Source: Escherichia coli
GTDB lineage: Bacteria; Pseudomonadota; Gammaproteobacteria; Enterobacterales; Enterobacteriaceae
Direction: 5' to 3' (one strand)
DNA length: 64,000 nucleotides
Assembly (NCBI RefSeq): GCF_003334785.1
Contig: NZ_QOWV01000011.1
Under the pieces are notes generated by a model. It did no database searches. It was given only the letters and a program-made list of their open reading frames with translations, and was not told where the DNA came from. This document shows, piece after piece, positions 24,196-41,804 of the stretch (position 1 is its first letter; each line of letters opens with the position of its first letter). A program made the position numbers and the translations under genes.

Positions 24196-24516
24196 TTACT
24201 TATCAACGACCTGCCAGCCATCATCTGTTTTGACCAGCTTGACAGCCGCTGTGCGTTTTTCGTTATCGACAACAGCTGTTACATTGCATTTATAGCTTTT
24301 ATCCGATAGTTTTTCGCAGTCGTGTTTTTTGACTGATTTTAACTTCCGCAGCATGTCAGGCGTGATATCGTTTCTCGCTATGGATTTAACGATGGCATTC
24401 GTCTGCTCCACGACCTTATTCATCGCAGTGTAAATATCCTGCTCAGACGGTTCACTGGTGCAGCCGGTCAGCAAAAAAATGGACGCAATGAGTGTGGTAA
24501 ATGCATATGTTTTCAT
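24196..24516 (-). CDS. Putative lipoprotein
   Basis: Signal peptide with lipobox LLTGC. Confidence 0.55.
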   Translation of the reverse strand: MKTYAFTTLIASIFLLTGCTSEPSEQDIYTAMNKVVEQTNAIVKSIARNDITPDMLRKLKSVKKHDCEKLSDKSYKCNVTAVVDNEKRTAAVKLVKTDDGWQVVDK

Positions 24517-24542
24517 AAAATAATCCCAGACGGTAGAGTACG

Positions 24543-24941
24543 TTATTGAAAAAGGCCGGTTTTCATCTTGCTGTTGTTTTCAGAGAACGTCCACTTGCTG
24601 ACGGTTTCGCCTTTAAATTCGATTTCCAGCGTTTTGGCCTGCGTCTGTGAACCCCCGGTCAGCAGTCCAATCACGGGAATGAATGTGGTGGCATCAAACT
24701 GATTGTTGTCCATCGAATAAGTCCATTGTTCATTGCCACTATCAAGTGTAGTTTTGGTTTCGGGCTGACCGAATGCGGTAATGATTTCTGATTTCGTTGT
24801 TTTATTTTTGATGATTTTCGACTGCAGACTTTGTGATGTTTCTTTTTTTAGATGCTGGTTGCCTGATGTTGAACAGCCAGAAATAAGTAAAGAAGAAATA
24901 AAAAACACAGAAATCATGAATCTGTTCATAAGTTTTCTCAT
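24543..24941 (-). CDS. Putative lipoprotein
   Basis: Signal peptide with lipobox LISGC. Confidence 0.55.
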   Translation of the reverse strand: MRKLMNRFMISVFFISSLLISGCSTSGNQHLKKETSQSLQSKIIKNKTTKSEIITAFGQPETKTTLDSGNEQWTYSMDNNQFDATTFIPVIGLLTGGSQTQAKTLEIEFKGETVSKWTFSENNSKMKTGLFQ

Positions 24942-24978
24942 ATTAATTTTTTATGTTTGCGGTGGTGTGAAATTAATA

Positions 24979-25254
24979 TCATCTTATAAAAACAACTCTG
25001 TCTGCATATTTCTTTTTAATAATGCAGATAAGAATAATGACGCTGGCAAAAAACGTAATGACTGAGGCAGGAGTGCTGCCGGTCAATGAAAACACTAACC
25101 AGGCGAGAGCTAATGCCACGAATTGAAACAGGAATGCCACACTGAGTGGACTTTCACCATAGGCCACTTTTGCATGGCAACCTTTGCAAACCCGCACACC
25201 GTGTGGGCTTTGTGTAAAGCAGAAAGGGCAGCTAATCGTTTTATTATCCATCAT
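24979..25254 (-). CDS. Small zinc-ribbon membrane protein
   Basis: CPFC...CKGC four-Cys motif followed by two hydrophobic helices. Confidence 0.45.
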   Translation of the reverse strand: MMDNKTISCPFCFTQSPHGVRVCKGCHAKVAYGESPLSVAFLFQFVALALAWLVFSLTGSTPASVITFFASVIILICIIKKKYADRVVFIR

Positions 25255-25439
25255 GACTCCGTAGCCTGATTTAAGGTGATGTATTTTTGAACATTTTCGA
25301 TGAATGAACTGCTTTAGTAAAATTGCTTGTACCGATCGATGGATCTCAGGCGATAGGTTATATCTATTATAACTAGATTATCGATCTATAAAAACGATCG
25401 ATATCTTATTGACTATCACTAAAGTATGGACTAGCTAAC

Positions 25440-26669
25440 TTATGGTGCAGGATGGTTGTTGTTTTTAAATGATTGTTCTTTATTGGTATTTGTTGTCATG
25501 GGATGACAGGGTGTCAGAATATGTAGGTGGAGGATTTGGTGGAAAGGATGTGCAGTGGCATGTAACAGAGACATGCCTCTGCGCCTGAGAAGTGCCACAA
25601 TATGGACGAGCAATACAAGCCATGAATACAGACGACGCTGGCGGGGTATCTGACGAGCTGTATTGTGCAGATTGCTCCTGAGCTGGATGATACCCACTGT
25701 CTCCTGTTGTCTTTCCAGACGAATTTTTTCTTCAAGCTGATGGATTTTCTCCAGAATCGTTTCCCGGTTTGCAGCCTGCTCTTCAGACTCGCATGATGGC
25801 ACTGGCACTGGCACTGGCACTGGCACTGGCACTGGCGCGGTTGTAGGTTCTATTGGCCTCTGGGCTTCTTTCAGTAAACTCAGATGCTCAGGCGTAAAAT
25901 CAATCAGTGCTTGCAGGGAAGACCAGCCATATTTTTTACCCAACTGAGATGCTTTAAAGGCAATACCCTGGTATTGAAATGAAAATCCACTCATTTTACC
26001 CGTAGTGGCGATATTGGGTTTGCAGGTCACTCCTTCCTGTTCCAGTAAGCGAACAAAGGTTAGTAAATCGGGATGGTGTGTTAATGCATTGTCGAGCAGG
26101 GCCTGCAACAGTGACTTAGGGCAGGGAGCTGCTGTGCGTTCTGCCATCATCAGTTCATTACGGGAAGGCTTCCTTTTATCCTGGCGGCTACTGCCGGTTA
26201 CACCCGTAGTTTCGGTGAGGCCGTGTACTCTCTCCAGCTCACTGATAATCCGTGTGCCGATAAGATTTTCATTTTTCCCCAGGTACAGTTTTCCACCGAC
26301 CATGTTAATACGACTTGCAATGATATGAATATGCTGCCCATCCGGATCATCGTGCATGATATAGCAGCGAAGATGGGTGTCAGTGAAGCCCATTCGGGCC
26401 ATATAATCGTCAGCGAATGCTGCCCACTGTCTGTTTGACAGTTTCTCACCCTTTGGCAGGCGAAGTGAATTATGCCAGACAGGTTTGGCGACATCGGGAC
26501 GCAGCAGTCGGGTGCCTTCAAATTCACTTATAAGCTCAGCAGCAGTGCTACCCGTCATGTTGCCACCGATGACATAAGGCGTGATTTTGTGGTGAGAACC
26601 TGACTTCAGGCTATAAATAACCACACCTGTGAATTGTTTACCCCTTTTTATTTTCTGCATGCCTTTCAT
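25440..26669 (-). CDS. Mobilisation relaxase (MobA/MbeA-like)
   Basis: 409 aa; histidine-triad-like relaxase motif HDDPDGQHIHIIASR; ATGA start/stop overlap with upstream mobC-like gene. Confidence 0.7.
   Translation of the reverse strand: MKGMQKIKRGKQFTGVVIYSLKSGSHHKITPYVIGGNMTGSTAAELISEFEGTRLLRPDVAKPVWHNSLRLPKGEKLSNRQWAAFADDYMARMGFTDTHLRCYIMHDDPDGQHIHIIASRINMVGGKLYLGKNENLIGTRIISELERVHGLTETTGVTGSSRQDKRKPSRNELMMAERTAAPCPKSLLQALLDNALTHHPDLLTFVRLLEQEGVTCKPNIATTGKMSGFSFQYQGIAFKASQLGKKYGWSSLQALIDFTPEHLSLLKEAQRPIEPTTAPVPVPVPVPVPVPSCESEEQAANRETILEKIHQLEEKIRLERQQETVGIIQLRSNLHNTARQIPRQRRLYSWLVLLVHIVALLRRRGMSLLHATAHPFHQILHLHILTPCHPMTTNTNKEQSFKNNNHPAP
25798..25836. repeat. Hexanucleotide tandem repeat (ggcact) x6.5 inside relaxase gene
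   Basis: Direct read; encodes (Pro-Val)n linker PVPVPVPVPVPVP on minus strand. Confidence 0.9.
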
Positions 26670-27073
26670 GGGTCTGACTCCAGAAATGTTGAGGGAATAA
26701 GGTGATCCCTGAGAGTTTTGATTTGTCTGCGCAGGGCGAAGAGTTCTGTACGGGTCAGTTCGCTGTCAGGGCTTTTGCTGTCGAGATGACTCAACAGGTA
26801 GTTTAAATCCTGTGAAAGGCTGCCAAGTTTTATCCATGCTTCACGATTGATTTCTGGCAGAACCGGCGGGAGTTTATTCAGGGAAGCCATCCTGAGCCAT
26901 TCTCCTTTTTTATACTGACCTCTTTTACTGTCGAGAATAATTAATTCTTCTTCATTTAATCTGACACTGATGCAGTGATGTCGTATTTCATTCTCAGGAA
27001 ATTTGTCAGTATGGAATTTACCGCGTTTTGATACTCTGGTTATATCATCATCATTACTCATGTCACTGTTCAT
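26666..27073 (-). CDS. MobC/MbeC-like relaxosome accessory protein
   Basis: 135 aa; position immediately upstream of and overlapping relaxase; family assignment from composition and context, weaker than relaxase call. Confidence 0.55.
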   Translation of the reverse strand: MNSDMSNDDDITRVSKRGKFHTDKFPENEIRHHCISVRLNEEELIILDSKRGQYKKGEWLRMASLNKLPPVLPEINREAWIKLGSLSQDLNYLLSHLDSKSPDSELTRTELFALRRQIKTLRDHLIPSTFLESDP

Positions 27074-27274
27074 AGTTATCCTTTTATTTCATGTTTATTA
27101 CTACAGATAACCGATGAAATGAATAAGTCAAGTTGTTACGGGATAAATAATTTAATTATCTGGATTAAAAAAGGTATACCATTTGACAAATAGTATACCC
27201 ACGAGGACATATCAGATTAATGGTCATTAAATGAATCCTTGCAGACTAAGAAAAGGGTTGTTTACTCCAGAGTT

Positions 27275-28242: not shown

Positions 28243-28683
28243 TTAAGCGGTCGTTTTGTGCCAGGTATTATTGTTGTATTCATATTCTTTTATCTTAATG
28301 ATCTCGTCATAGATCCGTGAAAAAGAAAACCATGAGATCTCTTTCACTTCGCCTTTTTTGTTTGTGTAAATGATATTGCAGCCACGAAAAGAAAATGACT
28401 GATAGAAAGTATCGTGATTCTCCTCTTTAAGAAAACGGGTAAAAGCTTTTATGGTGTCTTTTTTTTCCATGCTATAAGAGAAAAAGGTATGGATAGCAAA
28501 TATGGTCAGAATATTTCTTTCCGTCACCATATGTCTGGAAAAATAATTAAGATAAAAAACATGATCTTCAATGCTATTTTTACAGAATATTGAAAAGTGA
28601 GGGTTATACAGACGGTAGAGATCTGTATTCTTTTTTGTTTTAGATAGGTAACTTGTCAGGGTTGAATAGTTTTGTTTTTTCAT
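28243..28683 (-). CDS. Hypothetical protein (operon with ankyrin gene)
   Basis: 146 aa ORF 15 nt downstream of ankyrin gene. Confidence 0.45.
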   Translation of the reverse strand: MKKQNYSTLTSYLSKTKKNTDLYRLYNPHFSIFCKNSIEDHVFYLNYFSRHMVTERNILTIFAIHTFFSYSMEKKDTIKAFTRFLKEENHDTFYQSFSFRGCNIIYTNKKGEVKEISWFSFSRIYDEIIKIKEYEYNNNTWHKTTA

Positions 28684-28685
28684 TT

Positions 28686-29042
28686 TTATTCTCCTTTATT
28701 ATTTTGATGAAATGAATGTATATTATCAAATAAATAAAAATCAAATTTATTTTTAATAATAAAAAATAAGCAAGCGTTTTCTTTTGAATAAACTAATTTA
28801 ATGTGATGTTTTATATAAATAAATTCATAGTTTGCAAAAAGTGCTATTTTTATTTCATGGTTGATTGATGGGCGTTTTTCCCCATTGCTTAGGGGGAAAT
28901 ATATCCCATTAATATTAAATGTTTGAAGTGAATCGTATTTTAGCAGGGGAATATTATATCTTTTACTTCTGTTTTGATTTTCAACTTTGTGTGTGAGACA
29001 CAATATGTGATAGTGTTGTGATAATCGTAAGTATCCTGCCAA
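28686..29042 (-). CDS. Hypothetical protein (operon with ankyrin gene)
   Basis: 118 aa ORF 3 nt downstream of previous. Confidence 0.4.
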   Translation of the reverse strand: MAGYLRLSQHYHILCLTHKVENQNRSKRYNIPLLKYDSLQTFNINGIYFPLSNGEKRPSINHEIKIALFANYEFIYIKHHIKLVYSKENACLFFIIKNKFDFYLFDNIHSFHQNNKGE

Positions 29043-29264
29043 AACGAATCATTCACTTTAAACCTTTACTGACATATTGGTTATATATTCTGAGAAATTT
29101 ATAGTGCAAAAGGCTCGGTGTGCAGACTTACGCCAGCCCAATCAAGCCGTAGTGCTTTAGTTTTGGGGCTTAGGTATGGTGGAAAAAAGCGACTCGTTAA
29201 GCTTACTGAGCTCTATGTATTTCAGGAGTCGGTCAGTAAGTTAACGATCCAAGAGGCTCATCAA

Positions 29265-29537
29265 TCATAAGAGATGTATCAATCTTGCGAGACTCTCACG
29301 GATTTTATCGCCGTCATAAATAGCAATCTCTTCAATATTGTTACCAATGAAAGTTTCAGCTGCCTGGATGGCTATCAGTTCAGACATACCAACGTTATCA
29401 GCCAGCTGGCGTGCTGCAATGACCTTGCTTTCAAGAGTTAGGATGACCGGCCTGTAGCCTGCGCGTTTGATTTTGATACAGTGTGAAATCAATTTCTCCA
29501 TAGGTGCGGTGGTCACTTGGAATGCAGTCGTACCCAC
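29265..29537 (-). CDS. Hypothetical protein, possibly gene remnant
   Basis: 90 aa ORF; flanking 29540-29770 has coding-like composition without intact frame. Confidence 0.3.
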   Translation of the reverse strand: MGTTAFQVTTAPMEKLISHCIKIKRAGYRPVILTLESKVIAARQLADNVGMSELIAIQAAETFIGNNIEEIAIYDGDKIRESLARLIHLL

Positions 29538-30376
29538 CTGAAAGGCCCCTTCACGGTCAATGTGTGGATCATTAGCATTGGCCCTGCGACTACTGATTTT
29601 AACATCTAGGGAAACGTAGCTGATGTTTGGCTTCGATAAGATTCTGTAGCACCGCCTCAGTGGGGTTGTCAGAACATTCCGCTGCCGCCTTAAGAATATC
29701 GCTTACTAGAGATGAAACTGGTTGATTGTAATCCCGGTCGACCGTTACTCTATGTTTATCCGGATAATTTTGGCGTACACATTAAGTGAAGAAAACTTCA
29801 AAGTGATTTGAAACAGATGTTGTATTCACTGGCTCATTTACATTAACTTGAGTGTTGTTCAGCACATGTTGAAACGCAGCTGTAAGGAAGATGATACAGC
29901 CAAGATGTATCCTTCATTATGGGGATTGGCGCGATGACCACCACGGCTTAGCCCGATTGATTATTTGGAAATTGATTAGAATGCATAATCTGGGCTGAGC
30001 TCACTTAAAGTCTCTAATGTTTGACTTGGAGATTTGGGGGGCAGTGGCTTTCAGTTTTGTTAACTCTAACATCTGGTTTACGTTCCTTTTGGAACAAGAA
30101 GCAGAGGTCTGCTAAGTAATGGTTGTACTGCTTGTGATAGGTATGACTGCATGTTCAGCGAGCAAGAATGGCTTAAAAGTTCTGTTACTGAGCACCCCAT
30201 GAAGTTAGAACGATGTCATAACGTGCACGTAACCGTTGAACTGTTCTCTTACAGATAATCTCTACATAGCTATTATTGCTTAGGCGGTAGCTATGTAGAT
30301 GGTTTTTGTAATATTATATTAAAAGTTCATACAGCGACTATAGCATCATTGCGAAAAATATCAGGAGGTGAGTTTA

Positions 30377-32482
30377 ATGTTACGAAAAAGCAAACTTACA
30401 GAGATATATAAAAGGTTTGGTTTTACTGAAGAAAATACAGGTAACGAAAGTATTGCTGTATATTCTATTAAAACAGGGCACTACCATAACGCGGACATAC
30501 TTCCACTAAATAATGAGGTTAATGTAAATCAAACCTTTGAAGAATATAGGCAGTTAGGTTATGCATGTCAAATTAAAAAATATCAGTCTTATGAAGAAGC
30601 ACATAAGGAATTATTTAATGGCTTCTTTAGCGTCGATTCAACTAAAGAAAGGTTGATTAAAGATTATAATACTTTCACAGATTCAATTGTAAAAATTCAC
30701 TCACCTACTGCAACTTATTCCTACATAAATTCAAAATATTACTTAAATGGTGTTATTGGCGAAGCTAATGTTGTTACGGAAATATTAGAGAGAATACAAC
30801 ATAGGCGTCCAATTCTGTTTTTGATTGAGGCTGCAGCCGGTTTTGGAAAGACTTGCACGGCGTATGAATTATTGAGGGAGATTATAGTTAACAATATAGG
30901 GAAAATACCATTATTTTCAGAACTATCAAGGAATAGGCAAGCAAAAATATTCAGGTATGTACTATTAGATGAAATTGATAGAAGTTTTCCTTTGTTAAGC
31001 TCAGCCTTAGTAAGGAATGAAATAAGAGCAGGAAATGTACCAGTTATACTTGACGGGTTTGATGAACTATTGCATGAAAGTACAAACGGAATTGAAAATA
31101 ATTATGAAAAAACAGAGCCAATGCTGGAAACAATAAGTGAGCTTCTAACTGATAGTGCAAAAGTGGTTTTGACAACTCGAAGAACAGCTATATTTGACGG
31201 AGATGAATTCCATCAGTGGATAGCATCACATCAAGAAGATTTTGATGTGATAAGAATAAGAATTCATGAACCACAAATTGAAGACTGGCTTCCAGGTCAA
31301 CGTTTAGATGAAATTTCATCGACAGGATTTCCTCTTAACAAATTATCAAACCCTGTACTGCTATCATTTCTAAGATGCATCGACGACACCGACTTTAATA
31401 AAGTTATAAGCGACCCAACAACTATAGTGAGGAAGTATTTTGATTCAATGCTTGAGCGAGAAAGAAAAAGACAAGATTTATTAATGTCTATTGAAGATCA
31501 ATATACTATACTAAAAATAATAGCTGACGACATGGTCGAGGGTAACTACACATCTGAGTCTAGAGAGTATATATCGTTAGTCATAACTGAAAAGAATCAA
31601 CAACTCTTGGAGGCTACAAGAAAGCTTTATACTGTAGATGAAAGACCAACTACTGACGAATTAGTTAATAAATTAGCATCGCATGCTCTATTAGATCGGT
31701 CAGGCTCAGAAAACCAAGGTATTGGATTTGTTAATGAATTTGTTCTTGGTAATTTTGTTTCTGAAAATATTATTAATGATAAGTCAAATGAATGGATTGG
31801 TGATAAACGTTTTATAGAACCAGCAGTGCAATCTTATATGCCGAGGATCGATGATGAAAAAGAATTACTTTGGCATAGCTTAGAGTTTGCTTTATATTTT
31901 ATGTCAGGTAATGATAAAATCCTTTATAGTCATTTGCTTATAGGAAAAGTTCCATTAGATTTAAAAAATGATAGTGTTGAGCAATTGTCTATATCAAAAC
32001 TTTCTTTAGGCGATATAAATATAATACATGATACTATCTTTGTTGATTGTTCGTTTTTTAGCAGCATATTTACCTGTGGTAATTATAAAAACGTTACATT
32101 CGTGAACTGTTCTTTTATAGATTGTAGTTTTAACGAATTAAGTGGTAGGGAAGATATTTATTTTTTGGGATGTGAATGTGACAATGATGCTATTAATAAA
32201 AAATCTGTCGAGATAAACAGTGAAAATGATCACGATATTACAGATTGTGATATTTACATCTTAGAGAAGTTCTGTCCCAGAGGGAGTGTTAGCTATCATA
32301 AGCATCGGCCTATAAAAGGCTTATGTTCTAACAACAATCAATTTCAGTTAAGTGAAATACTCCATTCTTTAGATAAATTGAGGAAAGACGGTCTTTTACT
32401 TACGCCAGACAAGCGTTCGTTCCTTGAACTTAACATGGCAAGAATATCAGAGATTAAAGCAATTCTTGGGAGGAATTTCTGA
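30377..32482 (+). CDS. NACHT/STAND-type P-loop NTPase with C-terminal pentapeptide repeats
   Basis: Start at ATG 30377 with aggagg RBS; Walker A AAAGFGKT; NACHT-style Walker B VILDGFDEL; C-terminal run FVDCSF-FSSIF-TCGNY-KNVTF-VNCSF-IDCSF. Confidence 0.7.
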   Translation: MLRKSKLTEIYKRFGFTEENTGNESIAVYSIKTGHYHNADILPLNNEVNVNQTFEEYRQLGYACQIKKYQSYEEAHKELFNGFFSVDSTKERLIKDYNTFTDSIVKIHSPTATYSYINSKYYLNGVIGEANVVTEILERIQHRRPILFLIEAAAGFGKTCTAYELLREIIVNNIGKIPLFSELSRNRQAKIFRYVLLDEIDRSFPLLSSALVRNEIRAGNVPVILDGFDELLHESTNGIENNYEKTEPMLETISELLTDSAKVVLTTRRTAIFDGDEFHQWIASHQEDFDVIRIRIHEPQIEDWLPGQRLDEISSTGFPLNKLSNPVLLSFLRCIDDTDFNKVISDPTTIVRKYFDSMLERERKRQDLLMSIEDQYTILKIIADDMVEGNYTSESREYISLVITEKNQQLLEATRKLYTVDERPTTDELVNKLASHALLDRSGSENQGIGFVNEFVLGNFVSENIINDKSNEWIGDKRFIEPAVQSYMPRIDDEKELLWHSLEFALYFMSGNDKILYSHLLIGKVPLDLKNDSVEQLSISKLSLGDINIIHDTIFVDCSFFSSIFTCGNYKNVTFVNCSFIDCSFNELSGREDIYFLGCECDNDAINKKSVEINSENDHDITDCDIYILEKFCPRGSVSYHKHRPIKGLCSNNNQFQLSEILHSLDKLRKDGLLLTPDKRSFLELNMARISEIKAILGRNF

Positions 32483-33387
32483 TGTATAACGGGAATGAAT
32501 TGCGAATTATTCAAAGTTTGCAAAAAGATATAGAAGATGAACTTAATCGTATTGGATTACTTTATCGTTTTTTTTCGAGGACAAAATCAGAAAGCTCAAT
32601 AATTAAGAAATATGAAAAAGAGCCTAATAAATACTCAGAGGATGGTAAAAAAATTCAAGACTTATTTGGGGTTAGGATAATATTATATTTTCCTGATGAT
32701 TTATTTATTGCTCAAAAAACACTGGAGAAATTATTCGAAATTGAATCTAAAACCGTAGACGAAACCACGGCTAATCTCTTTGCGGCAACTCGATGCAATT
32801 ACGTCTTTAAGTTACCAGAAGTATTATCAAATGATAGTGTCTTATTAAAGAAATATTCTTATATTGATACTACTTTTGAAGTCCAATTTAGAACTATTTT
32901 ATCTGAAGGATGGCATGAAGTTGAGCATGATCTACGCTATAAGTGCAAAGAGGATTGGGTTGAGCATAATGACCTTAGTCGCGCGCTGAATGGAATTTAC
33001 GCCTCTTTGGAAACATCTGATTGGGGAATAATGAAGTTATTTGAGGATTTAGCATATAGAAATTATAAGTCAAGCGCATGGTCCGCTATGCTAAGAAATA
33101 AATTAAGATTGAGAATGGACGATAAGCTTGATGAAAAGATAATTTCAATAATTAATGAGAAAGAGCTTGGTAAAAAGTTTTATAGAATTGACAGAGATCG
33201 TTTGTTATCGTTAATGTTAGATTATAATATTGATATACCAATTAATCTTAATAATATAATTTACCTTTGTAATTATTTTTTCATAAAATCTACGGAGCTT
33301 CAGGATATAGCCCCTGCTTTAATAATGAAAAAGCTTACAGATGCTGATGAAAAATTCAATAAAAATACTATTTTAGCATCTAAATAA
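32482..33387 (+). CDS. RelA/SpoT-domain nucleotidyltransferase (alarmone-synthetase / toxSAS-like)
   Basis: Start overlaps upstream stop (TGATG); motifs FSRTKSESSIIKKYEK, DLFGVRIILYFPDD and EVQFRTILSEGWHEVEHD correspond to the RelA/SpoT synthetase fold (G/RxKS..S, D..G.RII, ExQIRT). Confidence 0.65.
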   Translation: MYNGNELRIIQSLQKDIEDELNRIGLLYRFFSRTKSESSIIKKYEKEPNKYSEDGKKIQDLFGVRIILYFPDDLFIAQKTLEKLFEIESKTVDETTANLFAATRCNYVFKLPEVLSNDSVLLKKYSYIDTTFEVQFRTILSEGWHEVEHDLRYKCKEDWVEHNDLSRALNGIYASLETSDWGIMKLFEDLAYRNYKSSAWSAMLRNKLRLRMDDKLDEKIISIINEKELGKKFYRIDRDRLLSLMLDYNIDIPINLNNIIYLCNYFFIKSTELQDIAPALIMKKLTDADEKFNKNTILASK

Positions 33388-33405
33388 TAACTATCTCCGG
33401 CTATT

Positions 33406-33433
33406 AAGTAGGCCTTGTATTTTAGGCCTACTT
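33406..33433. terminator. Hairpin downstream of the NTPase-RelA/SpoT pair
   Basis: Stem aagtaggcc/ggcctactt with 9-nt loop; A-run on plus side, so may serve either strand. Confidence 0.4.
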
Positions 33434-33766
33434 AAAAAGTTTCATTATGTGAAGTGATGATGATAGCAAATCTGCTATCTTTATGGTTGGATGCGAGAAA
33501 ATATTTTTATCCCGACACAACAACTGGTAATGATAGAAAATTTAAACCCAAAAATGCTACAGTAGCCTCAGCTCACAAACGGAGTATAAAGTGGCGGTTA
33601 CTCTTTAGTGGGAATACTGTAGATAGTTGATAAACTGGGCTGGATTTTCTTTTCTAACCGAAGGGAAGAAAAGCAAGGGGAACCCAAAGAAACAAGCGCA
33701 GCGGCTTCGTAGGGTTAGCCCTTGCTTCTTTTATAATTGGCATTATTCATTCAAGAACAATAGGAT

Positions 33767-33786
33767 CTTCGCTTGTACAAGCGAAG
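33767..33786. promoter_or_regulatory. Perfect 20-bp palindrome cttcgcttgtacaagcgaag
   Basis: Direct read; lies in 1-kb ORF-free AT-rich spacer downstream of ParB-like genes. Confidence 0.5.
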
Positions 33787-34439
33787 CTATAATAAAAAAT
33801 CAATTAATTATTTTAAAAGTATTAAGCAAGAGCCTATTGACATTCGTAAAATAAAAGTTATTTTTAATGTATGCCATAAATAAAAAGTTTTATGTCATAT
33901 GTATCCTGCACTATGTGCAGTTAATGTGCCACTTGTCCCATATATGGGAATATTGGAAAGGTTACTTTGTTTTGAAGTAGCCTTTCGTCCTTCAATATTC
34001 ACGATTACTTATTGCTATTACCAAGTCCAGTCGAATCGAAGAACATCTTTTATCTGAAACGACTCCTAATACCAGGTTGAAGCCACAATATCTCTCGCAT
34101 AAGTAGACCAAAGAAAAATTATGATATTAACTATGTGATTTTTTTTAGTGTTAAGTTGAATAATTATATACTGGAGAGTTTTCTGTACACTACCAATTGC
34201 TGGTTCATCTGTTCTGCCGCTGATGTTTCTGACTAATCTCCCGGTGACACAGAACTGTCCCTCTCTACCAGCCTTTATTCGACTCAATGTCCGGCTGCTG
34301 ATACGCAGTTATCCCTTCGTATCAATGACTGACTCTTAAACGCAATGCTTTGGTTGCTGGCGTATCTGACAGCTTCTTCGGCGTGAAGGTCGTTGTGTAA
34401 GTATACTTCTTGGTTTATTTAGGCTATATAAAACCATGA

Positions 34440-35336
34440 CTATGACTGGCTGTTTTCAGTAAGAGTCTTATCATCCAAAGAATTTATTCTAGAAATTCTT
34501 TTTAACTCATTAAGATAATCAACCTCGTTTTCTAAGAACCAATGAAGAACTTTAGAGTTGCCAAGTAATTTATTAATATATGACTGGATTATAACGAATT
34601 TCAACATATCTGAACCATACTCGGTTTGAAGTTTTTTCGTTTCTTCCGAAGTTGTTGCCATTTCTTGTTCCAGACGAAGTATGGTTTTTTTTATGTCCTT
34701 TTTATAGGGAGTGTTTTTCCCTTTATTTACTATCATCGATGACGGTGTTGCATCCAAGATGCTCATTGCAAATTTTTTACTATAATTATCAAAATTAATC
34801 ATTGTACCGACTGCTTCAATTTGACGAATTGGCTTCATTTTCCTCAAAACGTCAAATGTAGCCTTAGGTATAGGTTTATCAGAAAGTTTCGCAATTACAC
34901 TTGGATCTATGCCGTTCATCACATTAGCTTTATCTTTTATGGCATCAACAGATATGCCCAAAGCAGCACTAAGTTTTTCAATTGATACTTTTGCCAGAGA
35001 CTTAATTATCATTCTATGTTCTTCAACTACATTTATATGATTCACTTGTTTGTTAGGAGTGAAAGCATCATCTATGCTCGAAAGTATACATGGAGCTTTT
35101 TCTATATCTAAGTCTTTTAAAGCCTCAACCCTTAAATGGCCATCAAGTATCTTAGTGACATCTTTATCTTTGTCATAGAATACTATTATTGGTTCAATAA
35201 TACCCAAGCTTTCGATAGAGGTAACTATTTGATGATATTTATGGCTTCGCTTTACGTTTTCTAATAATTCCTTAGATGGAATTAACTTATTAGTTTCCAG
35301 GTAAATAAAATTTTTGCCAAAACGTATCTGAATCAT
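34440..35336 (-). CDS. ParB/Srx-fold (ParB-like nuclease domain) protein
   Basis: 298 aa; N-terminal ParB-like pattern ...IEPIIVFYDKDKDVTKILDGHLRVEALKDLDIEKAPCIL. Confidence 0.55.
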   Translation of the reverse strand: MIQIRFGKNFIYLETNKLIPSKELLENVKRSHKYHQIVTSIESLGIIEPIIVFYDKDKDVTKILDGHLRVEALKDLDIEKAPCILSSIDDAFTPNKQVNHINVVEEHRMIIKSLAKVSIEKLSAALGISVDAIKDKANVMNGIDPSVIAKLSDKPIPKATFDVLRKMKPIRQIEAVGTMINFDNYSKKFAMSILDATPSSMIVNKGKNTPYKKDIKKTILRLEQEMATTSEETKKLQTEYGSDMLKFVIIQSYINKLLGNSKVLHWFLENEVDYLNELKRISRINSLDDKTLTENSQS

Positions 35337-36229
35337 TTTGATACCTCTTTGTTTACTGGGTTTAATATCTGAGATGGTAGTTCTGAAAGATTCTCTTGTT
35401 CAAGTATATTTTGAAAGCTTTTATTCATCATTATGATGTTAAAAATCTCATTTATTATTAGTAGATTGGTTTTTATAAATTTCGAGTTGTTATAAACAGA
35501 TTTATGTTCAGCGATACTATTTTCATAAAGCTCAATCAACTCCTCTGCAGTCATCCTTTTTGATGGTTTGTGATAATAAAATCCGGCTGCTTTTGCACCT
35601 TTATTCCCAACTGTTCTTTGATTTAGAATGTATTTTATCTTTATAATGTCCCGACTTTTTATTAATTTTTTATCATATGCTTCGGTAAGAATATCTTGTG
35701 CTTCCTCAGTTTCACATCTTGCAAATTGCACTGCGAGATACAGAGGCAAATTACCCCGTTCGACTGCTGAGAGAAGTTTATGCTCTCCCTTATCAAGAAG
35801 CATATTAATACTGCTCACCCAGTTCGATGAATATCCAGTAATCTCACTTATTTCGGAGTCTGAAAGTCCTCTGATTTTCATGTCTTTAATCACCTGTAAT
35901 AACTCATTAGAACGTGGTCTTCTCCTTGCAATGTTTTCAACTAAACTCATAACGTAAGCATCTTCTTCTGATACATCTCTTATAATTGCTGGAATAATAG
36001 TTTCACCTAATGCAACAAGAGCCTCTATTCTCCCTTGACCACAAATTAAAGCATATTTGAAATCGTCTTCATCAATAGCTCTTACGCTTATAGGCTTGCT
36101 TAATCCTCTTTTTTTTATGCTTTCCTTTATTTCTTCATGCACTACCTTATTTCTTGTTCGTGGGTTAAGAAATTTTATTTTTGCAATCTCAATTTGAATT
36201 ATTGGGAATTCATTTTTTTCAGGCAGCAT
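35333..36229 (-). CDS. ParB/Srx-fold (ParB-like) protein
   Basis: 298 aa; ...KPISVRAIDEDDFKYALICGQGRIEALVALGETIIPAIIRDVSEEDAYVMSLVENIARR resembles ParB N-terminal domain; 4-nt overlap with downstream gene. Confidence 0.6.
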   Translation of the reverse strand: MLPEKNEFPIIQIEIAKIKFLNPRTRNKVVHEEIKESIKKRGLSKPISVRAIDEDDFKYALICGQGRIEALVALGETIIPAIIRDVSEEDAYVMSLVENIARRRPRSNELLQVIKDMKIRGLSDSEISEITGYSSNWVSSINMLLDKGEHKLLSAVERGNLPLYLAVQFARCETEEAQDILTEAYDKKLIKSRDIIKIKYILNQRTVGNKGAKAAGFYYHKPSKRMTAEELIELYENSIAEHKSVYNNSKFIKTNLLIINEIFNIIMMNKSFQNILEQENLSELPSQILNPVNKEVSK

Positions 36230-37775
36230 ATAGTTCCCTCACTTTCATGCGAGTAATAATTTGTAGAAATTTATCAAGATTATCAAATCTATAGAGATCT
36301 AACCGAATGTTGTTTGTTTCCATCATACACATTTTACTATATTCGTTTTCAATCTTTGGTATGATATAAAAATCAAGAGGTGAAATATTTTGTGAATTCA
36401 TTCGTATAACAATTGTTATGTCTGCTTTCTGTGAGTTATCAAACCGGACTTTCCATCTAAGTTTACCTGATTTCATATGTATGCATTTAGTAACAAGGAC
36501 GGAAATTAAAAACTCATCATTGATGTAAAGCATTGGGTAATATTTATACTCGTCTATATGACAGTTACTTTTTAATATTTCGCCCTTAAAATCCTCAATT
36601 ATCTCTGAGTAAAATGATCTTAGTGCTTCATTTATTTGGAGATAGCTGTAATCATGTTCTGGCTTATAACCAATCAAAGTATATGCTCTTAAAAGACCAC
36701 CAAATCGGGTTCTATAAACAGAAGATGAAGGGCCTGTATCATCTTCATCAATGATAAAGCCTGATAGTTTTCCATTAGATTCTAATTTTTCTTTTAGCTT
36801 TTCTAATAGATCTTCATTAGTCAAATGAATGGATCGGAGCTGAATTATTTCTTGAGCTTTATTATATTTTTTCTTTGAAATAATTGGTTTATATGCCTTG
36901 TCACATCTAATCCATTCATGTTTGGGGTTTTTTACAAGCTTACTTTTTAGTTTAGATGAGGTTTTGTTATATATGTTGTTTCCAATATATTTTTCATTTG
37001 TCAAAATTTGATGTATTTTTGCACGAGTCCATGATGTTCCATTTTCTGCAGGTATGCTCTGTTCATTTAATCTCTCAGCAATAATGAATTCTGGGACGTT
37101 ACTATCTATAAAGAGATCATAGATTCTATTTACAATTTTTATTTCATTTTTTGGTCCCGGAATTAATATTACCCTATCTGTTTGAATACTCTTTCTTTTG
37201 CGGAAATTCAATATTTCTTTAGCTATGCCATTTTCGTCTACTAAAAGACGTCTCAGCCCATAACCAGCCATACCGCCTTGATGATAACCAAGCTTTATTA
37301 AATTTACTTGCCCTATAAATACCTTTTCAGATAGATTCCTGCTGTGATATGCAGCACTTGATCTTTTTATATTCAGTATAACAGAGGACTCTAAAGGGAA
37401 ATCTTTAGTGGGTATAGGTTCGGAACAATATATAAGATCTACACCATTTCTTTCAAATAGAAAGGAATAATATGCAGCTTCATCACTATTTTGAAAACGA
37501 CCAAAACGGCTCACATCATAAAATAATACAGCCTGTATATCTATTTTCTTTTGTTCTACATCGCTAAGTAACTGCTGCAAAGAATGCCTGCCTACGATAC
37601 TGACTCCGCTCTTACCTGCATCATCGTAGGTATAAGCGATTTCCATATTGTTCTTTTCAGCATAATCTTTGATATATTCAGACTGATTATGTAAAGAATA
37701 TTGCTGATGGTCGGTAGACATCCTCAAGTACTGTGCGACCCTAACTCTATGATTTTTTTCATTTCCGCTAGCCAT
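36219..37775 (-). CDS. Large serine recombinase (resolvase + recombinase domains)
   Basis: N-terminal resolvase motif YLRMSTDHQQYSLHNQ with catalytic-Ser context and DVSRFGRF; downstream recombinase-domain pattern (SWTRAKIHQILTNEKYIGN); start at ATG 37775. Confidence 0.7.
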   Translation of the reverse strand: MASGNEKNHRVRVAQYLRMSTDHQQYSLHNQSEYIKDYAEKNNMEIAYTYDDAGKSGVSIVGRHSLQQLLSDVEQKKIDIQAVLFYDVSRFGRFQNSDEAAYYSFLFERNGVDLIYCSEPIPTKDFPLESSVILNIKRSSAAYHSRNLSEKVFIGQVNLIKLGYHQGGMAGYGLRRLLVDENGIAKEILNFRKRKSIQTDRVILIPGPKNEIKIVNRIYDLFIDSNVPEFIIAERLNEQSIPAENGTSWTRAKIHQILTNEKYIGNNIYNKTSSKLKSKLVKNPKHEWIRCDKAYKPIISKKKYNKAQEIIQLRSIHLTNEDLLEKLKEKLESNGKLSGFIIDEDDTGPSSSVYRTRFGGLLRAYTLIGYKPEHDYSYLQINEALRSFYSEIIEDFKGEILKSNCHIDEYKYYPMLYINDEFLISVLVTKCIHMKSGKLRWKVRFDNSQKADITIVIRMNSQNISPLDFYIIPKIENEYSKMCMMETNNIRLDLYRFDNLDKFLQIITRMKVRELYAA

Positions 37776-38057
37776 GCACAAAACCTCATGGATGATTCAA
37801 TACAATGTAGAGGATAAAATTGATCAAATTTTAACCGAATTCAACTGTTTTATCATTGATTAGAGCGAATTTGGTAGTTCTTCGAGGTGTATGATAATCG
37901 AGAAGAGATGTGAATTATTTAGCTGATATGACCGACAGCTTTCGTTATGTGGCCTCAAGGTACCCATTTGTAAATGGCTATGCTTAGTCCACATAGGTTA
38001 ATGGTGTGATCATTAATTCTTCAAATAAATCAAGATAGTTAACCCATCATGGAAGAG

Positions 38058-39287
38058 TTATGCGGCAATAACTTTGTATTTTTGAGACGAAACATAGTCA
38101 CTCCACCATTGCATGAGAACCACACGTTCTGTGAGATACTCTGCACGATTGTAGGCTGCAATTATTTCATCTTTTTTCGAGTGGGCAAGGGCGGCTTCTA
38201 AGACATCAGTTCTAAACTTGCCACACTCCTCAGCCGCCGTTCTAGCGATTGATCGCATACCATGAGCTACAAGCTCACCTCCGAAGCCCATACGGATTAT
38301 AGCCGCATTAGCTGTTTGTTCATGCATGTGATTGAGTGGAGCTTTGATACTGGGAAAAACCCACTCTCTATGCCCGCTGATGGCTTTCATTGAATCCAAG
38401 ACTCGCAAAGATTCTTTGCTCAGTGGAACTTTGTGAGGCTTCTTCATTTTCATAAACTCCGCCGGGATGTTCCACATGCTGGTTTCTATATCAATATCTG
38501 ACCATCTTGTGCGAACAGCTTCACCAGGGCGAACCCATGTGAGAAGTTGCCACTCAATCAGTAGCCTTGTTTCTAAACGGATAGAAGCATTGTTTAGAGC
38601 AACCAGGAAGCGGGGGAGTTCGGAAGGGGGTAATGCTGGCATATTCTGTTTTTTTGGCTTGCTGAACCGTTGCCCCAGGTTGTCAGCCGGATTGAATTCT
38701 ATGAGTTCTTCTGTTGCTGCATAGCGGAAAATTTCATTCAGGCGGGATATGACGCGGCGAAGTGTTTCAAGGACACCTCGTTTTTCTATGGGGTCTAAAT
38801 GCTGTTTAAGCATTTTAGGGCGAATCTCCTTAATGGGGGTATCACCCAACGTTGGAAAGATATTTCTCTCTAGGCTTCGCCAGATGTCGTTAGCATGATC
38901 CTGGGAGATGCCTGACGTTTTGACTTTCTCATCAAGCCACTTCTTGGCTACTGCTTGAAATGTATGTTCCGTTGCATCCTTAAGGGCATTGGCTTTGTGG
39001 GTGTTATGAACTTGTGGGTCTATACCATTTGCAAGCAACGACAAGTACTCATCACGTAAAGCTCGTGCCTTCGCAAGTGTAAGGTGAGGATAGGTTCCTA
39101 AGCTCACCTTAGTTCGCTTTTTGGTCACAGGCACTGCATATCTGAAATACCAATTTTTCTTTCCTCCCTTCGCTAAGGGGGCGATTCGCAGGAGCAAACC
39201 ATCGCCGTCAAAAAGGTTAACCTCTTTCTCGGCAGGTTTGGTGCTTTTGATTTCAGTGTCAGTGAGCTTCTTAGCGATTTTTGCCAT
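38058..39287 (-). CDS. P4-type tyrosine integrase (IntA-like) next to ssrA
   Basis: Start at MAKIAKKLTDTEIKS (ATG 39287) in ORF 38058-39431; C-terminal catalytic region with HGMRSIARTAA and terminal tyrosine context; directly 5' of tmRNA 3' end. Confidence 0.85.
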   Translation of the reverse strand: MAKIAKKLTDTEIKSTKPAEKEVNLFDGDGLLLRIAPLAKGGKKNWYFRYAVPVTKKRTKVSLGTYPHLTLAKARALRDEYLSLLANGIDPQVHNTHKANALKDATEHTFQAVAKKWLDEKVKTSGISQDHANDIWRSLERNIFPTLGDTPIKEIRPKMLKQHLDPIEKRGVLETLRRVISRLNEIFRYAATEELIEFNPADNLGQRFSKPKKQNMPALPPSELPRFLVALNNASIRLETRLLIEWQLLTWVRPGEAVRTRWSDIDIETSMWNIPAEFMKMKKPHKVPLSKESLRVLDSMKAISGHREWVFPSIKAPLNHMHEQTANAAIIRMGFGGELVAHGMRSIARTAAEECGKFRTDVLEAALAHSKKDEIIAAYNRAEYLTERVVLMQWWSDYVSSQKYKVIAA

Positions 39288-39453
39288 GTTTGGGACCCTC
39301 ATGTTTTGGACCCTTTGTGTTGGGTCCCAAAAAGGGTGCCATAACGAGTAGATTCTAGCAATTCTCGGTAGACTACTATAGACGTAAAAAAGCCCGCAAG
39401 GCTGGTTCCATGCGGGCTTGATAGACTTCACTGAACTTCAATATATCAAAAAT

Positions 39454-39816
39454 TGGTGGAGCTGGCGGGAGTTGAACCCGCGTCCGAAATTCCTACATCC
39501 TCGGTACTACATGCTTAGTCAGTCTTTACATTCGCTTGCCAGCTGCGGACGGACACGCCACTAACAAACTAGCCTGATTAAGTTTTAACGCTTCAACCCC
39601 AGGCAGGGCTTCCACGCGATCTCTTTTGGGTTTGACCTCTCTTGATCCCCGTCCTAAGAGCGGAGGCTAGGGAGAGAGGGCTCTAAGCAGGTTATTAAGC
39701 TGCTAAAGCGTAGTTTTCGTCGTTTGCGACTATTTTTTGCGGCTTTTTACGAGGCCAACCGCCCCTCGGCATGCACCTTGGGTTTCGCAAATCCCGTCGA
39801 ATCCAGAATCAGCCCC
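39454..39816 (-). ncRNA. ssrA: tmRNA (SsrA)
   Basis: 363 nt; minus-strand sense begins ggggctgattctggattcgacggg and ends ...gggttcaactcccgccagctccacca; tag-encoding region present. Confidence 0.95.
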
Positions 39817-41462: not shown

Positions 41463-41804
41463 TTAGTTACCACTCAGCGCAGGTTTGTTATCAATATTGG
41501 TCAACACACCGCTACTGTTAAAGGTCAGCGTCAGCGTTTGCTGAGTTACACCTTCATGACCTGGTTGCTGGCGGAAGACATAGAACCAGGTATTCGTACC
41601 AAATGGATCGGACATCAGCGGTGTACCCAATGCGTACGCAACTTGTTGTTGCGTCATGCCAACACGTATTTTGGATACGTCGTTAGCGGTCAGATAGTTC
41701 CCCTGGTTGATGTCAGGACGGTAAACCACTCGCTCCAGAGTGGAACAGCCTGCGGTCAACATCAATAGTACTGCTGCTGCAGCAGTCAGCGTTTTACAGC
41801 GCAT
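41463..41804 (-). CDS. bamE: Outer membrane protein assembly factor BamE (SmpA)
   Basis: 113 aa lipoprotein, lipobox LTAGC. Confidence 0.9.

Follow-up and report, generated by a model that had tools for sequence, protein, structure and literature searches.

TraS and TraT of the F plasmid form an exclusion pair that combines a small inner-membrane protein with an outer-membrane lipoprotein. Among mobilizable islands, homologues of Sfx have been shown to exclude helper plasmids and set a precedent for an outer-membrane lipoprotein in this role; the exclusion role of MbeD of ColE1 is itself regarded as unclear (PMC11493245). A further lipoprotein that is relevant here, SEN1984 of ROD21 in Salmonella Enteritidis, was predicted to be BamE-like by Phyre2 (PMC10655114). 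Here we describe three small genes, referred to as A, B, and C, that follow the relaxase gene of a chromosomal integrative mobilizable island at ssrA in Escherichia coli. They occupy positions 24196 to 25254 of the window, by which we mean the whole stretch of 64,000 nucleotides (nt) that was analyzed.

The A-B-C locus resembles the TraS/TraT (F-like plasmids) and EexC/Sfx (IncC plasmids) systems in that a small predicted inner-membrane protein and putative outer-membrane lipoproteins are encoded next to each other and beside transfer genes, and like these systems it would act in the cell that carries the element. However, Sfx is 286 amino acids (aa) long, whereas B and C have 106 to 128 aa (PMC11493245), and neither TraT nor any other exclusion family has a sequence match with A, B, or C. 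The ColE1 plasmids share with this locus the presence of small lipoprotein-type genes with the mob region (MbeD/kil), but the element described here is not a plasmid and its proteins have no MbeD/MobD match. The link to ROD21 is one of nomenclature, as RefSeq names B after SEN1984. An E. coli plasmid also has a ROD21-like module with an A-like gene beside a lipoprotein gene and a relaxase gene; the relaxase of this module is of the MobA/MobL type in contrast to the PF03432 type found here, the island family and gene order differ, and its partner lipoprotein has no detectable relation to B or C.

Three small envelope genes on a chromosomal island

The first-pass annotation of the window had described three small genes in the orientation of the relaxase and behind it, two of them encoding lipoproteins and the third a zinc-ribbon membrane protein. 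This description is borne out: ORF calls place three co-oriented minus-strand open reading frames (ORFs) at exactly the limits given (Table 1), B and C both carry lipoboxes, and A combines a zinc-ribbon motif with two hydrophobic segments. The accompanying assumption of a ColE1-type mobilizable plasmid has to be abandoned, since the genes lie on an island at ssrA that has an integrase. A 10-kb query around A-B-C had matches in 307 of 5,426 complete E. coli genomes at 341 places, none of which was on a plasmid, and A-B-C itself was found in 272 E. coli genomes at 284 places, all chromosomal, and at full length in 146 genomes. The E. coli alleles of A-B-C range from 100% down to ~77% identity, and islands of this type are present in ~5% of this set of complete E. 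coli genomes. The sole DNA match in the plasmid collection (megablast) was OX345050.1 (survey locus L007), a 3.6-kb contig filed as a Salmonella "plasmid." We rejected it as proof of a plasmid location; it is a linear contig with the order orf146-ankyrin-mobC-relaxase-5' part of A and is apparently a piece of an island of this family. No mating-pair or type IV secretion system genes are annotated in the island, which with its relaxase and its integrase beside an RNA-gene site is an integrative mobilizable element.

Table 1. Positions in the window of A, B, and C and of the features that surround them
Feature	Position	Strand	Description
Gene A	24979..25254	-	ORF of 91 aa; RefSeq coding sequence WP_000369203
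Gene B	24543..24941	-	ORF of 132 aa; likely start at 24929 gives 128 aa
Gene C	24196..24516	-	ORF of 106 aa
Conserved noncoding region	25255..25439	-	185 bp, from the relaxase stop to A
Terminator-like hairpins	24143..24180	both	Separate C from the convergent gene; mark where the A-B-C unit ends
Relaxase	25440..26669	-	PF03432-type, MOBP-like; Pro-Val repeat; anchors the slot
Relaxase-accessory gene, MobC position	26666..27073	-	Overlaps the relaxase start; kept with the relaxase in 27/27 loci
Convergent backbone gene	23563..24054	+	163 aa (141-163 aa); bounds the other side of the slot
Integrase	38058-39431		Adjoins the tmRNA gene
tmRNA gene (ssrA)	39454-39816		
Host bamE	41463..41804	-	113 aa, identical to K-12

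A, B, and C are real genes, encode three small envelope proteins that are independent of one another, and lie together as a compact unit. The identical protein sequence of each is present on at least 1,000 contigs, B has 350 homologues, C has 112, and A has 53, and all three are conserved across the Enterobacterales. Pairwise dN/dS values of 0.06 to 0.35 were obtained for A, B, and C, and all three are under purifying selection. For A, a start at the second ATG (25251, giving 90 aa) is favored by RefSeq on identical DNA and by the spacing to a GGAG ribosome-binding site, and the later start of B (MNRF...) follows RefSeq on identical DNA and the N termini of homologues. Comparisons with known families gave little to go on. 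Pfam scans of the three proteins (E values up to 10) returned no TraT, MbeD/MobD, or other exclusion or lysis family, NCBIfam returned no exclusion or lysis family, and PADLOC models had zero matches. Across NCBIfam, PHROG, Pfam, and PADLOC there was no informative family for A or C, and B matched only PHROG 3135 (E value of 5e-24), which has no assigned function. A literature search by protein accession found nothing beyond the ROD21 papers (PMC10655114, PMC3198454). Overall, we regard A, B, and C as uncharacterized envelope genes of an accessory, ordinary-looking kind in an island family that is common.

Sequence and fold of the three proteins

The sequence of A has CPFC-x10-CKGC, continues with two hydrophobic segments (near residues 35 and 57), and ends in a basic tail, KKKYADRVVFIR. 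A is therefore predicted to be an inner-membrane hairpin of two transmembrane (TM) segments with an N-terminal zinc ribbon, and the positive-inside rule suggests that both the ribbon and the tail face the cytoplasm. The A family comprises ~110 clusters at 50% identity, in which the zinc ribbon (CPxC..G..VCxGC.A...YG) and the tail (DRVVF.R; conserved as YADRVVFIR at the C terminus of A) are the conserved parts and the TM segments are variable. Two of the four cysteines (C12, C23) do not vary across 37 family members, and the other two (C9, C26) are kept in at least 90% of them. The Pfam double zinc ribbon (DZR, PF12773) gave a weak match to half of the domain over residues 9 to 31 (E value of 0.0066).

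The N termini of B (MNRFMISVFFISSLLISGC; lipobox LISGC, with Ser at +2) and of C (MKTYAFTTLIASIFLLTGC; lipobox LLTGC) both have basic residue(s) and a hydrophobic stretch ahead of a [LVI][ASTVI][GAS]C lipobox, and the lipobox cysteine is invariant in the B alignment as well as in the C alignment. Both are predicted signal peptidase II lipoproteins and are probably lipid-anchored periplasmic proteins of the outer membrane. Their modeled folds are of kinds that are typical of protein-binding or inhibitor proteins.

The AlphaFold model of B (pLDDT of 79) is BamE/BLIP-like in fold. B would thus share with BamE (SmpA/OmlA) both the lipid anchor and the fold type of the model, but it has a conserved Gly-rich loop, FIPVxGLxxGG, that stands opposite a gap in E. 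coli BamE in the alignment. At the sequence level, the PF04355 (SmpA/OmlA) profile was not significant on B (i-Evalue of 0.19), hhalign of B against E. coli BamE gave a probability of 32%, and PDB sequence-profile searches with B found neither BamE nor anything else relevant, as was also the case for C. Some B homologues carry a precomputed PF04355 match or a bamE annotation. In keeping with the first-pass annotation, clear homology to a housekeeping lipoprotein was not found: B is BamE-like by fold only, and the host has its own bamE. B as the BAM subunit of the cell was accordingly rejected, given the separate canonical gene at 41463-41804. This true bamE lies ~16.5 kb from the BamE-fold lipoprotein of the island, a proximity that arises because the island integrates at ssrA, the neighbor of smpB and bamE. 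In some genomes, RefSeq gives the protein identical to B (WP_001079017) the name "SEN1984 family lipoprotein." NCBIfam release 20 returned no SEN1984-type family for B, and a look-up toward ROD21 through a Salmonella B homologue reached the same island family and not ROD21; homology of B to SEN1984 is at present a matter of RefSeq naming only.

The model of C (pLDDT of 81) has a single long helix packed on a four-stranded sheet, which is the cystatin/NTF2 superfold in a DUF4878-like form. In Foldseek searches, DUF4878 lipoproteins ranked directly after the family of C itself, with E values of 6e-8 to 1e-3; the Pfam scan of C gave no DUF4878 sequence match. C shares with the small DUF4878/NTF2-like lipoproteins the helix-on-sheet fold and the N-terminal lipobox, but a SEPSE motif conserved directly behind the lipid cysteine and a cysteine pair (C67/C77) are its own. 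The pair is invariant in the alignment, as would be expected for a periplasmic disulfide, and fits a periplasmic location. We found no support for "cell wall-binding protein," the NCBI name of C, and rejected C as a Cor or spanin protein, as those PHROG matches span the signal peptide only.

A modular slot behind the relaxase

To place A-B-C among related islands, we took the relaxase as the anchor of a survey that covered 27 loci from different species and located A, B, C, and the neighboring genes in each (loci are numbered with the prefix L). The full A-B-C set is found with relaxases of 78 to 86% identity and with several at ~50%, and includes the Salmonella loci L002-L005, L027, and L054-L056. 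A occurs alone in L025, and C occurs alone in Pectobacterium and Rahnella (L006, L028). In the Erwinia/Pantoea loci, the slot holds a two-TM protein of 190 to 245 aa, of the type assigned to DUF4755 (C-terminal domain) by a scan of the L033 protein only, followed by a B-like lipoprotein (L033, L045) or a C-like lipoprotein (L029, L030, L034, L035). Pantoea locus L031 has an unclassified 222-aa protein with one TM segment followed by a B-like lipoprotein, L036-L038 have a DUF4755-type protein alone, and Pseudomonas relatives, which have long relaxases, lack A, B, C, and the DUF4755-type protein in the slot. Replacement of A by the two-TM protein was seen in Erwinia, Pantoea, Pluralibacter, and Klebsiella michiganensis, often with a B-like or C-like lipoprotein gene a few bases downstream.

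The far end of the slot is marked by a homologue of the convergent 163-aa gene in nearly all A-bearing loci and also in L006 and L028. Identities along the islands are mosaic; in L027, for example, the relaxase is 51% identical and A is 82% identical. Variable defense cargo is found across mobC from the slot: relatives carry Kiwa, restriction-modification, and TacAT systems, and the reference strain has a gene with a RelA/SpoT domain. The survey thus places A-B-C in a conserved part of the island, in which the components are individually dispensable and exchangeable.

Relatives on phages and plasmids

Lambdoid phages and phage-plasmids have B-like genes (30 to 44% identity) at moron sites ahead of the tape-measure gene. 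In phage PhiR26_1 (L015, 4001-4381), a B-like lipoprotein gene is directly downstream of the cI repressor gene, and the corresponding site after cI in phage lambda holds the rexAB exclusion genes, which are expressed in the lysogen. B-like genes are also present in 133 plasmids, mostly of Burkholderia, where they are found inside an F-type tra operon (traN...traF...traH-x-B) or downstream of traG. C had no match in the plasmid collection.

A-like genes (~36% identity) stand immediately beside unrelated lipoprotein genes in three further contexts: on 30- to 33-kb Klebsiella and Citrobacter plasmids, on a metagenomic element, and in the ROD21-like MobA/MobL module of the E. coli plasmid, in which the A-like gene (37% identity) lies 10 nt after the lipoprotein gene. 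Comparison of C with these partner lipoproteins by hhalign was negative except for a 19-residue C-terminal strand. A zinc-ribbon gene of the A family is also one of only ~5 genes on 3.9-kb metagenomic MobA_MobL/Replicase plasmids (L047, L048), and one distant relative of A adjoins an Imm71/Imm72 immunity gene.

The upstream region and transcription of A-B-C

The noncoding region ahead of A is conserved beyond the flanking coding DNA in an alignment of 12 loci, even where the relaxase is only ~50% identical, and it accompanies gene A and not the relaxase. It contains an inverted repeat (TATCGATC-N9-GATCGATA) at 25379-25403, a third box (CGATCGAT) at 25333-25340, an invariant block of 30 nt (CATCGATCGGTACAAGCAATTTTACTAAAG), four GATC (Dam) sites, and a TATAAT hexamer. 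These elements suggest that the region is probably the promoter/operator of A-B-C; the promoter may be controlled by a repressor and, possibly, sensitive to methylation. A promoter consensus scan of the region called no promoter, an Rfam search of it gave no match, and RNAalifold found no convincing conserved RNA structure in it. As no terminator was predicted between the relaxase gene and A, read-through transcription is also possible. We considered the region as an origin of transfer (oriT) and rejected this, as it moves with A rather than with the relaxase and oriT-like inverted repeats are found upstream of mobC.

Possible functions of A-B-C

Our tentative proposal, which we consider possible rather than probable, is that A-B-C provides the cell that carries the island with an exclusion-type barrier in its envelope. 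By analogy with described exclusion systems, A would be the inner-membrane factor that blocks DNA entry, and B and C, as outer-membrane lipoproteins, would bind the surface-exposed or periplasmic part of an incoming apparatus, whether the mating pair of a helper plasmid or a phage. The three proteins would work separately, which would explain why related islands carry different subsets of them. We count in favor of this proposal the fixed slot, its position in the backbone on the relaxase side, and the modular exchange of its contents, along with the A relatives that stand beside unrelated lipoproteins and on the 3.9-kb MobA_MobL plasmid. The purifying selection on all three genes and the inhibitor-type folds modeled for B and C are likewise counted in its favor, and the presence of B-like genes in tra operons and in prophage immunity or moron slots would fit a barrier to incoming DNA. 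The earlier suggestion of entry-exclusion cargo stands as plausible by analogy only.

Several observations weigh against an exclusion-type barrier. A, B, and C have no sequence relation or specific fold relation to a proven exclusion protein (TraT, TraS, Eex, TrbK, or MbeD). The island does not itself encode mating-pair proteins and thus offers no cognate target, such as a TraG or TraN partner. The dN/dS values are low across each gene, with no sign of an arms race or of diversifying selection. Lastly, distant members of the A family are found alone in housekeeping contexts, so that a tie to transfer does not hold for the whole family.

An exclusion role could be directed at phages, with B and/or C masking or altering an outer-membrane receptor or a periplasmic step in superinfection exclusion or in a surface change upon lysogenic conversion, and A blocking genome entry. 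Cor, Llp, and TraT mask or alter receptors, and Imm of phage T4 blocks genome entry at the inner membrane. The moron positions of B relatives (37 to 44% identity) in lambdoid phages and phage-plasmids, the location of the PhiR26_1 gene directly after cI, the PHROG 3135 match of B, and the anti-phage cargo of the island family all point in this direction. Against this, PADLOC recognizes none of the three proteins, the Cor and spanin matches do not extend beyond a signal peptide, and C was unmatched in the plasmid collection, phage genomes not having been searched with C. In addition, the genes belong to the conserved side of the island that holds the transfer genes, outside the variable defense hotspot. 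On balance, we find a phage-directed role unlikely, though not negligible.

The genes might instead assist mobilization from the donor, with A tethering the relaxosome or docking the coupling protein of a helper and B and C aiding mating contact or passage through the cell wall. They are co-oriented with mobC and the relaxase gene and lie immediately downstream with no predicted terminator between, the conserved parts of A would be cytoplasmic, the 3.9-kb MobA_MobL plasmid includes an A relative among its very few genes, B relatives are found within F-type tra operons, and the weak fold matches of C include VirB8-like and NTF2-like conjugation proteins. However, islands with closely related relaxases variously lack A, B, or C, and Pseudomonas relatives lack all three, so that none of them is essential for mobilization. 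B relatives are also found in phages. These points make a donor-side function improbable.

Orphan periplasmic immunity is, to our reading, more doubtful still. Under this explanation, B and C would protect the host of the island by neutralizing periplasm-acting toxins or enzymes, such as effectors of type VI secretion systems, bacteriocins, or lysozymes, and A would be unrelated or a membrane partner. The cystatin-like inhibitor fold modeled for C and the Imm71/Imm72 gene next to a distant A relative agree with it, but none of the examined loci has an adjacent toxin gene, and the constant placement beside relaxase genes would be left unexplained.

A role as host-interaction or virulence cargo, or in lysis after the manner of ColE1 kil, is very improbable. 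ROD21 carries a BamE-like lipoprotein in SEN1984, its SEN1981A/SEN1982 genes seem to resemble an A-like gene beside a lipoprotein gene to judge from the sizes and spacing in a published table, and attenuation has been reported for a Salmonella Enteritidis mutant without SEN1982 (PMC10655114; PMC3198454). However, the genes described here are widespread in Enterobacterales from the environment and from plants (Erwinia, Pantoea, Rahnella, Pectobacterium), which speaks against a part in animal virulence. Lysis, for which the first-pass annotation had pointed to the lysis lipoproteins of ColE1 plasmids, fails on size and fold and is essentially rejected: B and C are folded domains of 85 to 110 residues, unlike the far shorter kil-type lipopeptides.

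It is conceivable, though unlikely, that the exclusion-type barrier proposed for A-B-C is one example of an unrecognized mix-and-match class of envelope exclusion or immunity systems, in which an inner-membrane hairpin protein with a cytoplasmic domain (zinc-ribbon A family or DUF4755) is combined with a periplasmic lipoprotein (BamE/BLIP-like or DUF4878-like) and bars helper plasmids or phages. B-type lipoprotein genes are found on phages, and both A-type and B-type genes are found on plasmids. If a role in exclusion or immunity is true, families unrelated to TraS/TraT, Eex, and Sfx would be added to the few entry-control factors, relaxase-only islands in ~5% of complete E. coli genomes would police the envelope of their host, and a function would be available for the family of BamE-like lipoproteins that phages, plasmids, and islands widely carry. 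Should A, B, and C be only accessory cargo, the analysis still does away with the plasmid assumption and delimits a conserved backbone of the island with its slot.

Island and chromosomal context

The window is ordered as gab operon, ileY tRNA, ypjA, genomic island, integrase, tmRNA gene, smpB, and bamE, a layout that we take to follow the CP4-57 region of K-12. A direct-repeat search for the att sites of the island found none. NCBIfam matches of the relaxase are weak (MobB, TraI_MobP, MbpB). Within the relaxase gene, a TGGCAC tandem repeat at 25797-25838 encodes the Pro-Val run and accounts for a length difference of 42 bp from strain TB4019; related relaxases have Ala-Gly or other dipeptide runs at this site, and the run is a length-variable linker. 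Upstream of the mobC-like gene, at 27173-27199, a 13-bp inverted repeat (GGTATACCATTTG / CAAATAGTATACC) is a candidate oriT. A different long inverted repeat (AAGCAAGGGCTAACTC...GAGTT.CCCTTG) occupies this position in more distant relatives (L006, L028, L029, L031, and L036).

On the other side of the slot, a 36-nt repeat is present at 23031-23164 in three copies with an exact spacing of 49 bp, between the genes for a 187-aa protein (22026-22589) and the 163-aa protein. The repeats are iteron-like, and the sequence of the 187-aa protein has the look of a RepL-like protein with a winged helix. Possibly, the island carries its own replication or partition-type site. Beyond mobC, positions 28243-37781 form the variable cargo region, which holds ankyrin-repeat and 146-aa genes, DUF4928 fragments, a 704-aa ORF, a RelA/SpoT-domain protein, two ParB-like genes, and a serine recombinase. 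In the Salmonella relatives (L002-L005, L054, L055), the cargo is instead Kiwa (KwaAB), BamHI-type restriction-modification, TacAT, or an AAA_13 ATPase. Outside the island, the tRNA gene with a CAT anticodon at 13229-13304 is called tRNA-Met by ARAGORN and tRNA-Ile (ileY) by RefSeq; the anticodon of ileY is lysidine modified.

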